Numbered from the stretch's first letter, positions 9,471 through 12,043 are shown. The stretch: 24,000 bases of DNA from Phreatobacter stygius (GCF_005144885.1 NZ_CP039690.1:6226873-6250872), one strand, 5' to 3'. The notes: a model not told the origin generated them from the letters alone. Made by a program: numbers and translations.

Positions 9471-9755
9471 ATGGCATTCCCCACAGCTGTCAACGATCAG
9501 ATCACCGACTCGGTGACGCAGGCCAACGTCAAGGTGTTGGGCGACGCGCCGGCCATCGCCATGGGCAATCTCTACCAGGCCACCGCCCAGGCCCTGTCGA
9601 ATGCGGCGCACAACGCCGCCAACGCCCAGCAGCAGAGCTACGTCACCAGCCAGGCGGCGACGACGATGGGGGTCGCGACCCTGTATTCGCTCGACACCGC
9701 CGCCACCGGCGTCGCCACCAAGGACATCCTCACGCCGCCGGTCCGCGGTCTCTAG
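9471..9755 (+). CDS. rebB: RebB-family R-body ('killing trait') protein, copy 1
   Basis: MAFPTAVNDQITDSVTQANVKVLGDAPAIAMGNLYQATAQALSNAAHNAANAQQQSYV... matches the RebB family signature (recognised from memory of Caedibacter RebB/Pfam RebB). SD GGAG at 9462-9465. The listed ORF 9411-9755 is trimmed to the ATG at 9471. Confidence 0.85.
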   Translation: MAFPTAVNDQITDSVTQANVKVLGDAPAIAMGNLYQATAQALSNAAHNAANAQQQSYVTSQAATTMGVATLYSLDTAATGVATKDILTPPVRGL

Positions 9756-9828
9756 CCCGCACCGTCGTCCGCAAACGCTAACCCCAGGCCTTTGGCTGCT
9801 CGGCCTGAAGGCATCATAGGAGGTCCAC

Positions 9829-10098
9829 ATGGCATTCCCGACGGCTGTCAACAGCCAGATCACCGACTCGGTCACCCAGGCCAACACCAAGGTGCTGGGC
9901 GACGCCCCGGCCATCGCCATGGGCAACCTCTACCAGGCGACCGCCCAGGCGCTGGCCAACGCGGCGCACAACGCCACCAATGCCCAGCAGCAGTCCTATG
10001 TCACCGCCCAGGCCGCCACCACCATGGGCGTGGCGACACTCTACTCGCTCGACACCGCCGCCACCGGCATGGCGACCAAGGACATCCTGTCCTCCTGA
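9829..10098 (+). CDS. rebB: RebB-family R-body protein, copy 2
   Basis: Differs from copy 1 at only 6 of the first 87 residues. SD AGGAGG at 9818-9823. Confidence 0.85.
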   Translation: MAFPTAVNSQITDSVTQANTKVLGDAPAIAMGNLYQATAQALANAAHNATNAQQQSYVTAQAATTMGVATLYSLDTAATGMATKDILSS

Positions 10099-10169
10099 CG
10101 CGGTCCTCGCCGGTCCCGAGGCACTTAAGGTCCCGGGGCCAGCGACGCAGTGTTTCCGGTGTGACGACC

Positions 10170-10244
10170 CCAAGGACTTCGCGCCCAAGGACTTCGCGCC
10201 CAAGGACTTCGCGCCCAAGGACTTCGAGCCCAAGGACTTCGAAC
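10170..10244 (+). repeat. 5 x 15-bp perfect-period tandem repeat CCAAGGACTTCG(C/A)(G/A)C ending 1 nt before the reb copy-3 ATG
   Basis: Units start at 10170, 10185, 10200, 10215 and 10230. The first three are identical; the last two differ at 1-2 positions. Every unit carries the SD-like core AAGGA, and the last AAGGA (10232-10236) sits 9 nt before the ATG at 10246. Confidence 0.95.
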
Positions 10245-10245
10245 C

Positions 10246-10512
10246 ATGGCCTTTCCGACCGCCGTCAATGATCAGATCACGGACTCCGTGACCCAGGCCA
10301 ATGTCCAGGTGCTCGGCGCTTCGCCGGCCATCGCCATGGGCAATCTCTACCAGGCCACCGCCCAGGCTCTGGCCAACGCGGCGCACAACGCCACCATGGC
10401 CCAGCAGCAGATGTACCTGACGGCCCAGGCCGCCACCACCACGGGCGTTGCGCTGCTCTATTCCCTCGGCACCGCGTCGACGGGAGTGGCGACCAAGAAA
10501 ATCCTCGGGTGA
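10246..10512 (+). CDS. rebB: RebB-family R-body protein, copy 3
   Basis: MAFPTAVNDQITDSVTQANVQVLGASPAIAMGNLYQATAQALANAAHNATMAQQQMYL... Its RBS is supplied by the last tandem-repeat unit. Confidence 0.85.
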   Translation: MAFPTAVNDQITDSVTQANVQVLGASPAIAMGNLYQATAQALANAAHNATMAQQQMYLTAQAATTTGVALLYSLGTASTGVATKKILG

Positions 10513-10518
10513 CGAGCC

Positions 10519-10538
10519 GGCGGCGCCTTCGCGCCGCC
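10519..10538 (+). other. GC-only stem-loop GGCGGCGC-CTTC-GCGCCGCC, 7 nt after the reb copy-3 stop, with no U tract
   Basis: Perfect 8-bp stem read directly from the sequence. It is followed by TGATCCAGCC, so it is not a canonical intrinsic terminator. It may be an mRNA-stability or partial-attenuation element. Confidence 0.45.
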
Positions 10539-10579
10539 TGATCCAGCCATAACCCCCCGCACGACAAGGAGCATCTTCG

Positions 10580-10843
10580 ATGGCTTTCCCGACATCGCTC
10601 AACAGCCAGATCACCGACTCCATCACCCAGGTCAACACCAAGGTCCTGGGCGACGCGCCGGCGATGGCGATGGGCAACCTGTTCGTCACCACGAGCCAGG
10701 CCCTTTCCAACGCCGCCCACAATGCCACCAACAATCAGCAGCAGTCCTACGTCACCATGCAGGCGTCGACCGCTCAGGCCGTCGCCACGCTGTTGACCGT
10801 GGACACGGCTTCCACGGGCATGGCGACCCACAAGATCTACTAG
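10580..10843 (+). CDS. rebB: RebB-family R-body protein, copy 4
   Basis: MAFPTSLNSQITDSITQVNTKVLGDAPAMAMGNLFVTTSQALSNAAHNATNNQQQSYV... SD AAGGAG at 10566-10571. Confidence 0.85.
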   Translation: MAFPTSLNSQITDSITQVNTKVLGDAPAMAMGNLFVTTSQALSNAAHNATNNQQQSYVTMQASTAQAVATLLTVDTASTGMATHKIY

Positions 10844-10938
10844 CGCGAGACTGTTGACGACGTCCGTTCGCGCCATCAGCCGGACGGACGCCGGTCGATC
10901 CCGACAGCGGTCGCCGTCCCAGGCGAAGGAACGTCAGC

Positions 10939-11175
10939 GTGGCCGAGGGTTCCGGCATCGCGGCCATGACGGGTTCGGTCACGACGGGCGCGATGCTCAA
11001 TGTGGCCCTCGCCCCGTCGGCGGCGATGGCAATGACCTACCTTGCCGGCGCCGACAGCATCGCGCTCGCCATGGGCAATGCGGTCGCCAATCAGCAGCGC
11101 GGGCAGGTCATCGCCAACGCCGCCACGGTTCAGGTTCTGGCGCTGATCATCTCGAAGGGAGCTACAGGCACATGA
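10939..11175 (+). CDS. divergent RebB-like protein, copy 5
   Basis: GTG start at 10939 with GAAGGA at 10925-10930. It retains the core ...APSAAMAMTYLAGADSIALAMGNAVANQQRGQVIANAATVQVLALI, which aligns with the AIAMGNLY...NAxxNxQQQ...AATT.GVA.L core of copies 1-4. Confidence 0.65.
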   Translation: MAEGSGIAAMTGSVTTGAMLNVALAPSAAMAMTYLAGADSIALAMGNAVANQQRGQVIANAATVQVLALIISKGATGT

Positions 11176-11648
11176 GCGATGAAGGCACAGTCAACAGCCG
11201 GGTCGTCGACTCCGTCGCCAGCGTCGTGACGCTGCTGAGCGGCCAGTCGCCGTCCCAGGCATTCGGGATGCTCGATGCGGTCATGGTCGAGACCCTCGGC
11301 ATGGCCATGCACAACGCCGTCGGCCGCCAGCAGGGCGGCGGCATGGTCAGCTCGGCCGCGGTCACGGCGGCTTGCGCCAAGATGCTGCAGACGCCGTTTC
11401 CGATCGCTCCCGCGCCGACGCCGCCGGTACCGCCCGACCCGCCGGTCGTCAATCCGCTGCCGGGGCCGCCGCCGGTCCTGCCGCCGACCTCGGCGGTGAT
11501 CGCGGCCGCCTTCGCCGAAGGGGAGGCGGCGATCAGCATCCTGCAGGCCCAGGCCCAGGGCGCCGGCGCCGATGCCACCCAGGCCCAGGCGGACCTGGCG
11601 CAGCTAGCCAAGGATGCCGCGCCGAGCACGCCGCCGCCGGGCGGGTGA
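11172..11648 (+). CDS. RebB-like domain fused to a polyproline linker and an Ala/Gln-rich C-terminal segment, copy 6
   Basis: The ATG at 11172 overlaps the copy-5 stop (ATGA). The N-terminus GTVNSRVVDSVASVVTLLSGQSPSQAFGMLDAVMVETLGMAMHNAVGRQQGGGMVSSAAVTAA is Reb-like. PFPIAPAPTPPVPPDPPVVNPLPGPPPVLPP and AEGEAAISILQAQAQGAGADATQAQADLAQLAKDAA follow. The listed ORF 10854-11648 is trimmed. Confidence 0.65.
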   Translation: MSDEGTVNSRVVDSVASVVTLLSGQSPSQAFGMLDAVMVETLGMAMHNAVGRQQGGGMVSSAAVTAACAKMLQTPFPIAPAPTPPVPPDPPVVNPLPGPPPVLPPTSAVIAAAFAEGEAAISILQAQAQGAGADATQAQADLAQLAKDAAPSTPPPGG

Positions 11649-11692
11649 GGCTGCGCGGCAACCGCGTGCGACCACAGGTTTAAGGAGGCTTC

Positions 11693-12043
11693 ATGCCGGA
11701 TCCGACAAGCGTCAACGCACAGGTCATCGACGTCATCAATCAGGCGCAGCTGGCCACCATGGGACCGCAGGTCGTGCTGACCAGCGGGGCGGGCAAGGCC
11801 TATCAGTCCGTCGCTCAGTCGGCGGCGATCGCGGTGCAGGACGCCACCGACGCGCTGCGCAACGTCTCGACCATCGCCACCACCGCCGTCGGCGTCGCCA
11901 TGGCCCAGTACCTGGCCACCGGAGACGACCGATACGCCAAGGCGATGACCCATGCCCAGCAACTGATGAAGGGCGCCACCGAGGACTACGGCGCCATCGG
12001 CGCGGCGGCCGCCGGGGTGCTCAAGGGCTTCCCTTCAGGTTGA
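11693..12043 (+). CDS. divergent RebB-like protein, copy 7
   Basis: Perfect SD TAAGGAGG at 11681-11688. MPDPTSVNAQVIDVINQAQLATMG...YQSVAQSAAIAVQDATDALRN...TTAVGVAMAQYL follows the Reb pattern (VN.Q..D...Q, A.A.. core) with a longer C-terminus. Confidence 0.6.
   Translation: MPDPTSVNAQVIDVINQAQLATMGPQVVLTSGAGKAYQSVAQSAAIAVQDATDALRNVSTIATTAVGVAMAQYLATGDDRYAKAMTHAQQLMKGATEDYGAIGAAAAGVLKGFPSG

Follow-up and report, generated by a model that had tools for sequence, protein, structure and literature searches.

The seven co-directional open reading frames at 9471-12043 of the window, a 24,000-nucleotide stretch of DNA from the groundwater bacterium Phreatobacter stygius, very probably constitute a canonical "Group 1" R-body (reb) cluster. 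R bodies are coiled ribbons of protein in the cytoplasm that neither SDS nor urea dissolves and that unroll on a pH trigger. The cluster is of an ordinary, catalogued type, with four main Reb genes (c1-c4) followed by three divergent Reb-like genes (c5-c7), and does not represent an unusual expansion (Table 1). This gene content suggests that P. stygius may produce R bodies.

Table 1. Features of the reb locus of P. stygius, with positions counted from the first nucleotide of the window.
Feature	Position	Strand	Description
Promoter-like element	9352-9382	+	CCAATC-N19-TAGGGT, ~119 nt before the start codon of c1
c1	9471-9755	+	94 aa; primary (group 1) Reb; htRebA counterpart; Pfam RebB 107 bits
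c2	9829-10098	+	89 aa; primary (group 1) Reb; htRebB counterpart; Pfam RebB 108 bits
15-bp tandem repeat	10169-10241	+	4.9 copies of CCCAAGGACTTCGCG that fill the spacer between c2 and c3; 98% matches, Tandem Repeats Finder score 139
c3	10246-10512	+	88 aa; primary (group 1) Reb, 'position 3' type; Pfam RebB 103 bits
c4	10580-10843	+	87 aa; primary (group 1) Reb, 'position 4' type; htRebD counterpart; Pfam RebB 101.5 bits
c5	10939-11175	+	78 aa, GTG start; short divergent Reb-like; HP1.4 / group S1 / htRebE type; Pfam RebB 47 bits
c6	11172-11648	+	158 aa; long Reb-like; HP1.3 / group S2 / htRebF type; Pfam RebB 68 bits over residues 11-74
c7	11693-12043	+	116 aa; distant Reb relative; HP1.2 / group S3 / htRebG type; annotated hypothetical
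HP1.1-type partner	12084-13184	+	366 aa; no relation to Reb
Small Ala/Glu-rich gene	13184-13581	+	Apparent frameshift near 13339
1210-aa hypothetical protein	13690-17322	+	Putative Pol-beta-type nucleotidyltransferase core, C-terminal caspase/CHAT-like domain; in a slot of variable content that separates HP1.1 from the regulator
Regulator	17596-19263	-	555 aa, convergent; sigma-54-activator-type AAA+ and AraC-type helix-turn-helix

Composition and synteny of the reb array

All seven plus-strand frames described by a sequence-only reading of this DNA were observed, as was the ATGA overlap that couples c5 to c6. That reading had placed the genes in the RebA/B/D (Pfam RebB) family of an R-body locus, and both the NCBI name of c1 (WP_136963418.1, 'RebB family R body protein') and a Pfam search of the seven translations bore this out. 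Six of the seven (c1-c6) scored above the RebB (PF11747, 'killing trait') gathering cut-off of 24 bits for the whole protein, with E-values of 1e-12 to 1e-31 and 101-108 bits for c1-c4, while c7 gave no match at E<=1 and so fails the Pfam check proposed with that reading. The GC3 of c1-c7 was 0.83-0.94 against ~68% GC for the window, so we consider all seven to be coding, and purifying selection was seen at each Reb position. The pattern V-N-x-[QR]-[IV]-x-D-[SV], proposed earlier as common to all seven proteins, was found in c1, c2, c3, c6 and c7; c4 narrowly misses it (L-N-S-Q-I-T-D-S-I), and c5 lacks it.

The closest comparison was with Hydrogenophaga taeniospiralis (locus L080), which is named as an R-body bacterium (PMC13430693) and whose rebA-G genes have the same number, order and strand as c1-c7 and are likewise followed by an HP1.1 homologue. 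Identities by position were 93, 92, 83, 83, 60, 59 and 67%, all above the 40% threshold of Dorr et al. 2026, and 38% for HP1.1. Four of the L080 frames (98, 65, 184 and 113 aa) have the lengths of the seeds htRebA, htRebE, htRebF and htRebG (seed lengths from PMC13430693 Table S1). Group 1 of Dorr et al. is defined by at least 40% identity to the htRebA seed, the motifs QITD, KxxxD/E and QQQ, a conserved Tyr, and few or no Cys, Trp and Phe (PMC13430693). We found c1-c4 to belong to this group, with 93, 91, 84 and 71% identity to the 98-aa frame, QITD and QQQ in all four, KxxxD/E in c1, c2 and c4 (missing from c3), no Cys or Trp, and one or two Phe. The secondary groups S1, S2 and S3 are defined by at least 40% identity to htRebE, htRebF and htRebG, S2 having in addition an extended Pro-rich C-terminus (PMC13430693). 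The proteins c5, c6 and c7 fall into these groups with 60, 59 and 67% identity to the 65-, 184- and 113-aa frames, and the C-terminal half of c6 is proline-rich, most of its 22 prolines lying past residue 75.

Profile comparison with group 1 Reb agreed with the earlier view of the later copies as divergent relatives of Reb, hhalign giving a probability of 97% (E 5e-11) for c5 and 98.6% for c6. For c7, its family of 66 sequences aligned with 136 group 1 Reb sequences at a probability of 86% (E 5e-6) over 73 colinear columns from residue 1, a moderate score, and RebB was the commonest sub-threshold Pfam match in this family (14 of 38 members, best E 9e-4). These results support c7 as a probable distant Reb homologue at the profile level, short of family-level RebB membership.

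The architecture recurs widely among the 80 related genome loci carrying reb genes that formed our comparison set. Exactly seven Reb-like genes were present in 56 of the 80, the order 4+1+1+1 (RRRR-5-6-7) in 55, and HP1.1 directly after the c7 homologue in 53, and the RRRR-5-6-7 arrangement spans alpha-, beta- and gammaproteobacteria. Seven Reb-like genes are thus the norm, and the earlier remark that seven is unusually many does not hold; copy numbers of 6, 7 and 9, together with this exact synteny, had already been published for other species (PMC3583457, PMC13430693). Raymann et al. 2013 described the Group 1 synteny as HP1.4 (~60-80 aa), HP1.3 (~170 aa), HP1.2 (110-120 aa) and HP1.1 (~360 aa) in fixed order (PMC3583457), and in P. 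stygius frames of 78, 158, 116 and 366 aa stand in that order behind four reb genes. HP1.4 and HP1.3 were described there as distant Reb proteins (PMC3583457), and Dorr et al. name the parts of the cluster groups 1, S1, S2 and S3 (PMC13430693).

The Reb-like proteins might instead build some other structure, such as a different cytoplasmic polymer, with c7 and HP1.1 as unrelated neighbors. A sequence search gave no solved structure of a Reb protein, c7 fails the Pfam RebB model, and the fold of HP1.1 is confidently predicted and has no known match, all of which would fit such a reading. We consider it highly improbable, however, given the gene-by-gene colinearity at 59-93% identity with a species named as an R-body bacterium, the presence of c7 and HP1.1 homologues at the same positions in most loci, and the finding of HP1.2 and HP1.1 types by Raymann et al. 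solely in Reb-bearing taxa (PMC3583457).

Among characterized systems, rebABCD of Caedibacter taeniospiralis type 51 resembles the P. stygius cluster in that small RebB-family proteins polymerise into the ribbon and extra small proteins serve correct assembly rather than bulk; RebD is present in the ribbon as a minor component, and RebC, although needed for on-pathway assembly, does not become part of it (bioRxiv 10.64898/2026.05.21.725848). Caedibacter carries three Reb homologues and the unrelated RebC on a plasmid, whereas P. stygius has seven chromosomal Reb-type genes with Group 1 partners; HP1.1-1.4 are absent from Caedibacter, and RebC has no homologues elsewhere (PMC3583457, PMC13430693). 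Group 2 clusters (Azorhizobium caulinodans, Pseudomonas aeruginosa PA14) likewise have several reb copies in an operon whose transcription is tightly controlled by dedicated regulators. They differ in their accessory genes (HP2.1/2.2, S4) and regulators (Crp/Fnr-type RebR with PraR, or a sigma factor; PMC3583457, PMC5527310) from the Group 1 set and AAA+/AraC regulator of P. stygius, and the two synteny patterns are mutually exclusive (PMC3583457). Group 2 R bodies have been demonstrated by experiment and linked to host damage (PMC5527310, PMC8322103).

By homology with these systems, c1-c4, which are small, Cys-free, Ala/Gln/Thr-rich and helical, would be the main structural subunits, co-polymerising in the cytoplasm into the coiled ribbon. 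The ancient divergent paralogues c5, c6 and c7 (S1, S2 and S3; HP1.4, HP1.3 and HP1.2) would most probably be minor parts of the ribbon or factors in its assembly, not bulk subunits, by analogy with Caedibacter RebC and RebD, and HP1.1 may be an obligate partner. When a eukaryotic grazer ingests a producing cell, the low pH of the phagosome could extend the ribbon and rupture membranes.

Age of the copies

The description of c1-c4 as four nearly identical proteins is too loose, protein identity being 92% for c1 and c2, 84% for c3 with c1/c2, and only 64-74% for c4 with c1-c3. For c1 and c2, the 6 differences in 87 residues counted earlier were confirmed, and the DNA identity, put at about 85%, was measured at 85.8%. 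On the sequence-only reading, the drop in identity along the array reflected an unusual expansion, in which c1-c4 are recent duplicates or gene-converted copies and c5-c7 progressively older ones specialising in structure. Besides the likeness of c1 and c2, the identity between positions 1 and 2 within a locus is high everywhere (mean 92%) and their orthology is not separable on the first 86 residues, so some concerted evolution of c1/c2 is conceivable.

The conservation of position-specific residues argues against this expansion. The c3 protein carries the signature Q21, M56, L70 prevalent at position 3 in 52 loci, c4 carries the position-4 signature S9, V18, F35, V36, S39, N52, M60, Q66, and these residues are conserved over 52 loci of alpha-, beta- and gammaproteobacteria. 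The longer C-terminal tail of position 1 (94-98 aa versus 89) is conserved as well. The DNA identity of c1 and c2 (0.86) was not above that of c1 with its orthologues in Brevundimonas, Nevskia, Hydrogenophaga and Sphingomonas (0.81-0.89), nor was their identical-codon fraction (0.71 versus 0.51-0.81), and their divergence is about that separating c1/c2 from orthologues of other classes. Neither the signature residues across the 52 loci nor the DNA comparison with orthologues gave any sign of recent duplication or gene conversion among c1-c4. Because the signatures are common to 52 loci and the c1-c2 identity is no higher than that to orthologues, the divergence gradient is an ancient conserved trait of this cluster type and not local history. 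With seven genes in this order as the modal architecture (55-56 of 80 loci), a recent local expansion is by now largely ruled out and has very little probability left.

One feature particular to P. stygius in the comparison with H. taeniospiralis is the 15-bp tandem repeat between c2 and c3, a spacer of 147 nt versus 44-95 nt for the remaining array spacers. Each repeat unit includes AAGGA, and the final unit forms the weak Shine-Dalgarno sequence of c3. A strong Shine-Dalgarno sequence had been claimed for every copy; this is true of c1, c2, c4, c6 and c7 (duplex energies of -7.6 to -11.9 kcal/mol), while c3 and c5 have only AAGGA (-5.1 and -5.7 kcal/mol).

Putative promoter and regulator

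Of 79 loci, 54 have a motif of the form CC[AG]AT[CT]-N18-20-TAnnnT upstream of their first reb gene; in 200 shuffles the motif turned up in 0.8 loci on average and in 4 at most. The window contains only two such sites (0.11 expected), and the conserved element upstream of c1 may drive the reb operon as an activator-dependent promoter. Since neither a sigma-70 consensus promoter nor an intrinsic terminator was detected, the operon structure is inferred from the short spacers and common strand. The reb genes would then probably be transcribed as one operon from ~9352-9382 under the control of the AAA+/AraC regulator, a link suggested by the conservation of both: a homologue of the regulator lies at most 10 kb away in 65 of the 80 reb loci. 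Hydrogenophaga also has an AAA+/AraC regulator nearby, upstream and divergent rather than downstream and convergent as in P. stygius, and the strict CCAAT-N19-TAnnnT pattern is unmatched there. We found no description of this regulator or of this promoter in the R-body literature examined.

The regulator matched Sigma54_activ_2, Sigma54_activat, AAA_lid_14, HTH_18 and HTH_AraC in Pfam, with the AAA+ domain in two stretches. A sigma-54 enhancer-binding protein is characterized by a GAFTGA loop, a canonical Walker A (GxxGxGK) and a -24/-12 target promoter. GAFTGA is absent from the regulator and from 63 of its 64 homologues; its Walker A is GEFGTEK, a degenerate P-loop, with GEFGTE[KTM]-like sequences in place of GESGTGK in 37 of the 64 and a canonical Walker A in one; and no sigma-54 -24/-12 box was found in the 79 regions upstream of the first reb gene. 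The regulator is thus related to the sigma-54 enhancer-binding family without being a functional member of it, and it most likely works at a sigma-70-type promoter, by way of its AraC-type helix-turn-helix.

HP1.1 and the downstream slot

The 366-aa protein agrees in length with HP1.1 of Raymann et al. and belongs to no Pfam or NCBIfam family. Its AlphaFold2 model was of high confidence (pLDDT 94, pTM 0.89), and a Foldseek search of the PDB gave no fold match (best E 0.26).

The 1210-aa protein, also of no Pfam family, has full-length relatives within reb clusters (Elstera) and distant relatives outside them. A Pol-beta-type fold is recognized by hG[GS] ... [DE]x[DE] ... and a third carboxylate on a beta-sheet core, together with structural similarity to members. 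The residues K-G-G-R-A...D-x-D...K-x-E-x-I-D are invariant over 66 relatives, and the predicted structure places them on strand-helix-strand elements. The top Foldseek matches of its AlphaFold2 model (pLDDT 90.8) in the PDB were poly(A) synthases, DNA polymerases beta and mu, the MenT1 toxin and SAVED-CHAT, which were weak (E 0.014-0.3, none <=0.001) but coherent. Hydrogenophaga has a downstream relative that fits the family profile only at the nucleotidyltransferase core (positions ~252-521) and is followed by a GH25 lysozyme, which the P. stygius window lacks.

The contents of the slot between HP1.1 and the regulator vary by genus and include a PF04185 phosphoesterase, a lipase-like alpha/beta hydrolase, a lysozyme with a papain-like protease, a GH25 lysozyme and, in P. 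stygius, the protein with the putative nucleotidyltransferase core and caspase/CHAT-like domain. PF04185 is the family containing phospholipase C and AcpA. A tentative and rather unlikely extension is that Group 1 clusters are three-part modules. The seven-gene Reb array and HP1.1 would form a fixed core. The dedicated switch would be a protein of enhancer-binding type, ATPase-dead and GAFTGA-less, whose AraC helix-turn-helix acts at the CCAAT-N19-TAnnnT promoter. The slot would carry variable cargo, encoding the long-sought toxins or lysis factors that function alongside R bodies.

A silent or decaying, horizontally acquired relic that makes no R bodies was also considered. Our literature search found no report linking Phreatobacter to R bodies, the small gene after HP1.1 has an apparent frameshift, reb clusters spread by horizontal transfer (PMC13430693), and elsewhere R-body production is tightly repressed or limited to a fraction of cells (PMC5527310, PMC13430693). 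We nevertheless judge a relic to be improbable, since the seven Reb-type frames, HP1.1, the 1210-aa frame and the regulator are all intact with strong codon bias, the base composition of the reb region is that of its flanks, and the locus has the conserved promoter element. The downstream part is also kept in the related Phreatobacter contig L086, where the order of the regulator, MFS and PLP-enzyme genes is unchanged and the large protein is 87% identical to that of P. stygius.

In the small Ala/Glu-rich gene, high GC3 changes reading frame near 13350, and contig L086 has one extra base at the frameshift site, where the gene is a single open reading frame. The distal part of this gene has a relative just 3' of HP1.1 in Brevundimonas (E 3e-9). 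The frameshift could hint at decay of an accessory part of the locus.

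A Group 1 reb cluster with seven genes

This reb cluster is a textbook example of Group 1, already covered by public annotation and by two surveys (Raymann 2013, PMC3583457; Dorr 2026, PMC13430693). Relatives of c1, the first of seven co-directional Reb-type genes (c1-c7), were sought in one genome per species, the best 80 loci were retained, and all window proteins were mapped onto them. These loci came from Brevundimonas, sphingomonads, Bradyrhizobium, Hydrogenophaga, Rugamonas, Ideonella, Xanthomonas, Stenotrophomonas, Nevskia, marine gammaproteobacteria and others. Exactly seven Reb-type genes were observed in 56 of the best 80, and 55 of the 80 showed the order of four primary Reb genes followed by c5-like, c6-like and c7-like genes, with a homologue of HP1.1 (the partner ORF after c7) added to that order in 53 of the 80. 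The sequence-only reading had regarded seven copies as unusually many, but seven is the norm. Other multi-copy reb loci on record include Rhodospirillum centenum with 6, Vibrio fischeri ES114 with 7 and Marinomonas mediterranea with 9 (PMC3583457). The main yield of our analysis is negative in this respect, a normal gene number and no local expansion, and adds little beyond a free-living groundwater alphaproteobacterium joining the hundreds of taxa with a standard Group 1 reb cluster.

Group 1 synteny was described as reb genes followed by four partners, namely HP1.4 (~60-80 aa) and HP1.3 (~170 aa, double the usual length), both of them distant Reb proteins, HP1.2 (~110-120 aa) and HP1.1 (~360 aa) (PMC3583457). 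The first three, corresponding to c5, c6 and c7, were later renamed S1, S2 and S3, with a Pro-rich tail noted on S2, and group 1 genes, commonly multi-copy, were reported to co-occur with S1-S3 (PMC13430693). Seed sequences in the 2026 survey came from Hydrogenophaga taeniospiralis, listed there among R-body bacteria (PMC13430693). Our H. taeniospiralis locus contained ORFs of 98, 89, 89, 90, 65, 184 and 113 aa, in agreement with the htRebA/E/F/G seed lengths, and c1-c7 were 93, 92, 83, 83, 60, 59 and 67% identical to it by position.

Features of the reb locus in window coordinates
Feature	Position	Strand	Description
Promoter-like element	9352-9382		
5' leader (presumed, c1)	9389-9473		
Palindrome	9400-9414		GCAACTGAAAGTTGC
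c1	9471-9755	+	94 aa
c2	9829-10098	+	89 aa
c2-c3 spacer repeat	10169-10241		unit CCCAAGGACTTCGCG
c3	10246-10512	+	88 aa
c4	10580-10843	+	87 aa
c5	10939-11175	+	78 aa, GTG start
c6	11172-11648	+	158 aa
c7	11693-12043	+	116 aa
HP1.1	12084-13184	+	366 aa
Small Ala/Glu-rich gene	13184-13581		after HP1.1; 1-nt overlap with HP1.1 stop (TGATG)
Hypothetical protein	13690-17322		1210 aa
Regulator	17596-19263	- (convergent)	555 aa; sigma-54-activator-type AAA+ domain fused to AraC-type helix-turn-helix

Membership of all seven genes in the RebB family, as first read from the sequence, held for c1-c6 and failed for c7. Against the Pfam RebB model (cut-off 24 bits), c1-c4 scored 101-108 bits, c5 47 and c6 68, while c7 gave no match. 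Public annotation names c1 (WP_136963418.1) a 'RebB family R body protein' and both c7 and HP1.1 hypothetical proteins. Profile comparison by hhalign of 66 c7 homologues with 136 group 1 Reb sequences gave a probability of 86% (E 5e-6) over 73 colinear columns starting from residue 1; the corresponding probabilities for c5 and c6 were 97% and 98.6%. When 38 c7 homologues were scanned singly, RebB was the commonest Pfam family, at sub-threshold level only (14 members, best E 9e-4). The c7 family shares the core SGAGKAYQSVAQSxAIAVQDATDxLRN. By the Pfam standard c7 falls outside the RebB family, and it is most aptly called a highly conserved protein, distant from Reb and probably derived from it. 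A PDB sequence search with c1 returned no solved Reb structure.

By homology, c1-c4 would be the bulk ribbon subunits, the role assigned to the primary Reb groups in the 2026 survey (PMC13430693), and c5-c7 would act in assembly or as minor parts. RebD of the type 51 system is a minor constituent; RebC of that system stays out of the ribbon and prevents off-pathway aggregation (bioRxiv 10.64898/2026.05.21.725848). In A. caulinodans the essential genes include some of the reb genes as well as one non-reb gene, and two reb genes, rebAZC1 and rebAZC2, are redundant (PMC5527310).

Coding signal and age of the copies

All seven plus-strand ORFs were found where the sequence-only reading had placed them, with the ATGA overlap joining c5 and c6 as it had described. 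Window GC is ~68%, and third-position GC was 0.83-0.94 in each of c1-c7, so the long minus-strand ORFs opposite these genes are high-GC artefacts. Other details of that reading needed correction. The N-terminal VNxQIxD[SV] motif, said to occur in all copies, is absent in c5 and imperfect in c4, and the strong Shine-Dalgarno sequence claimed for every copy is not borne out, the ribosome-binding sites of c3 and c5 being weak. Near-identity of copies 1-4 applies to c1 and c2 (6 differences in 87 residues and 85.8% DNA identity, as the reading had estimated), but not to c4, which is 64-74% identical to c1-c3.

This gradient from similar to divergent copies had been attributed in part to recent duplication or gene conversion among c1-c4, an explanation that was rejected by position-specific signatures together with a DNA-level comparison. 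A clean 4+3 arrangement was present in 52 loci; among them, the best match in other loci was to the gene's own position 64% of the time for position 3 and 74% for position 4, and positions 1 and 2 were interchangeable. The residues prevailing across these 52 loci at position 3 (Q21, M56, L70) and at position 4 (S9, V18, F35, V36, S39, N52, M60, Q66) are present in c3 and c4 of the window, respectively. At the DNA level, the identity of c1 to c2 (0.86) was not above that of either gene to orthologues of other genera (0.80-0.89; Brevundimonas, Nevskia, Hydrogenophaga, Rugamonas and Sphingomonas), and the fraction of identical codons at conserved residues was 0.71 for c1 and c2, within the between-genus range of 0.51-0.81. 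Because of the position signatures and the between-genus level of c1-c2 divergence, the gradient is read as an old, conserved trait of the cluster type, kept by purifying selection, with no sign that copies were recently duplicated or converted in this genome. On this view the Reb paralogues would have divided the labour long ago and conserved that division, and the conservation of positions implies a distinct, selected ribbon-building role for each of the seven.

Two compositional features were also observed. GC skew was strongly negative (-0.15 to -0.17) and AT skew positive only across the reb array (window 9500-11000), a reflection of how rich Reb proteins are in Ala, Thr and Gln (codons GCC, ACC and CAG) and not a replication feature. 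A perfect-looking 15-bp tandem repeat of 4.9 copies fills the c2-c3 spacer up to the c3 start codon, each unit containing an SD-like AAGGA, and reb-gene spacers in related loci look shorter than this one.

A conserved regulator and promoter-like element

Only three parts of the locus may deserve more work, namely the regulator, the promoter motif and the cargo slot with its enzymes; if confirmed, they could bear on how R bodies are switched on and which toxin accompanies them. In 65 of the 80 loci a regulator homologue was located no more than 10 kb from the reb array, and its position and orientation varied. No Group 1 regulator is mentioned in either survey (PMC3583457, PMC13430693), and none was found in our literature search. 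The GAFTGA loop was absent from 63 of 64 regulator homologues. Walker A reads GEFGTEK in the window, with GEFGTE[KTM]-like forms in 37 of the 64 homologues and the canonical GESGTGK in one. Since it lacks GAFTGA and has a degenerate Walker A, the regulator is probably sigma-54-independent. No sigma-54 -24/-12 box was found upstream of the array in 79 loci (the window and 78 related).

Of the 79 loci, 54 carried the pattern CC[AG]AT[CT]-N18-20-TAnnnT ahead of their first reb gene (shuffled sequences, mean 0.8, maximum 4). It matched twice within the window, with 0.11 expected, and one of the matches is the promoter-like element listed in the table. The conserved element may combine the regulator's putative binding site with a -10 box, and from the sequence pattern we infer that the window copy is an activator-dependent sigma-70-type promoter, with the putative regulator site adjoining the -35 region. 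A consensus scan of the reb operon gave neither a sigma-70 consensus promoter nor an intrinsic terminator, and Rfam gave no match over the entire window at gathering thresholds. The 5' leader had a folding z-score of -0.4 and is thus without special structure.

A second ACCAAT was seen ~21 bp upstream in marine gammaproteobacterial loci. The sequence GGCAAC...GTTGC near 9400 was considered as a sigma-54 promoter and rejected, its spacing being wrong; it belongs to a perfect palindrome in the presumed c1 leader that had no counterpart in the upstream regions of the other 78 loci.

Downstream genes and a variable slot

The HP1.1 protein gave a confident AlphaFold2 model (pLDDT 94, pTM 0.89) of mixed alpha/beta structure with a C-terminal beta-sheet. 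It matched no Pfam family and, as no significant PDB fold match was obtained with Foldseek (best E 0.26), the modelled structure may be an uncharacterised fold. The small gene that follows appears frameshifted. It changes reading frame near 13339-13350, where a related Phreatobacter contig has one extra base and a single ORF; either the gene is frameshifted or a pseudogene, or the sequence contains an error at this point. The proximal part of the ORF at 13184 had no homologue in related loci at E<0.1.

The 1210-aa protein has many relatives of ~1200 aa and no Pfam domain. It contains an invariant nucleotidyltransferase-like K-G-G-R-A...D-x-D...K-x-E-x-I-D, and its AlphaFold2 model was confident (pLDDT 90.8). 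The best PDB folds were coherent but weak (E 0.014-0.3) and included poly(A) synthases, DNA polymerases beta/mu, the MenT1 toxin and a SAVED-CHAT protease. Its C-terminal part places a His and a Cys after consecutive strands in the fashion of caspase-like proteases (caspase/CHAT-like domain). Full-length relatives are found at the equivalent site of other reb clusters (Elstera), and distant relatives, with other C-termini, occur outside reb clusters. In some relatives a papain-like protease takes the place of the C-terminus. A universal Reb-specific partner was ruled out by these distant relatives and by the family HMM, which matched only 14 of the 80 loci.

Related loci (L001, L002, L049, L064, L066, L006, L008, L059, L080) were compared for the genes lying between HP1.1 and the regulator. 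This slot contained a PF04185 phosphoesterase in Brevundimonas and Albitalea, a lipase-like alpha/beta hydrolase in Nevskia and Ideonella, a lysozyme with a papain-like (C39-like) protease in a MAG labelled Cyanobacteria, and a nucleotidyltransferase-core protein followed by a GH25 lysozyme in Hydrogenophaga; it was empty in Stenotrophomonas and sphingomonads, with the regulator directly after HP1.1. The difference in content between genera suggests, as a lead only, that the cargo of the slot varies and may consist of effectors or lysis factors tied to R bodies. An Rv2525c-like glycoside hydrolase was also seen among the slot genes of related loci.
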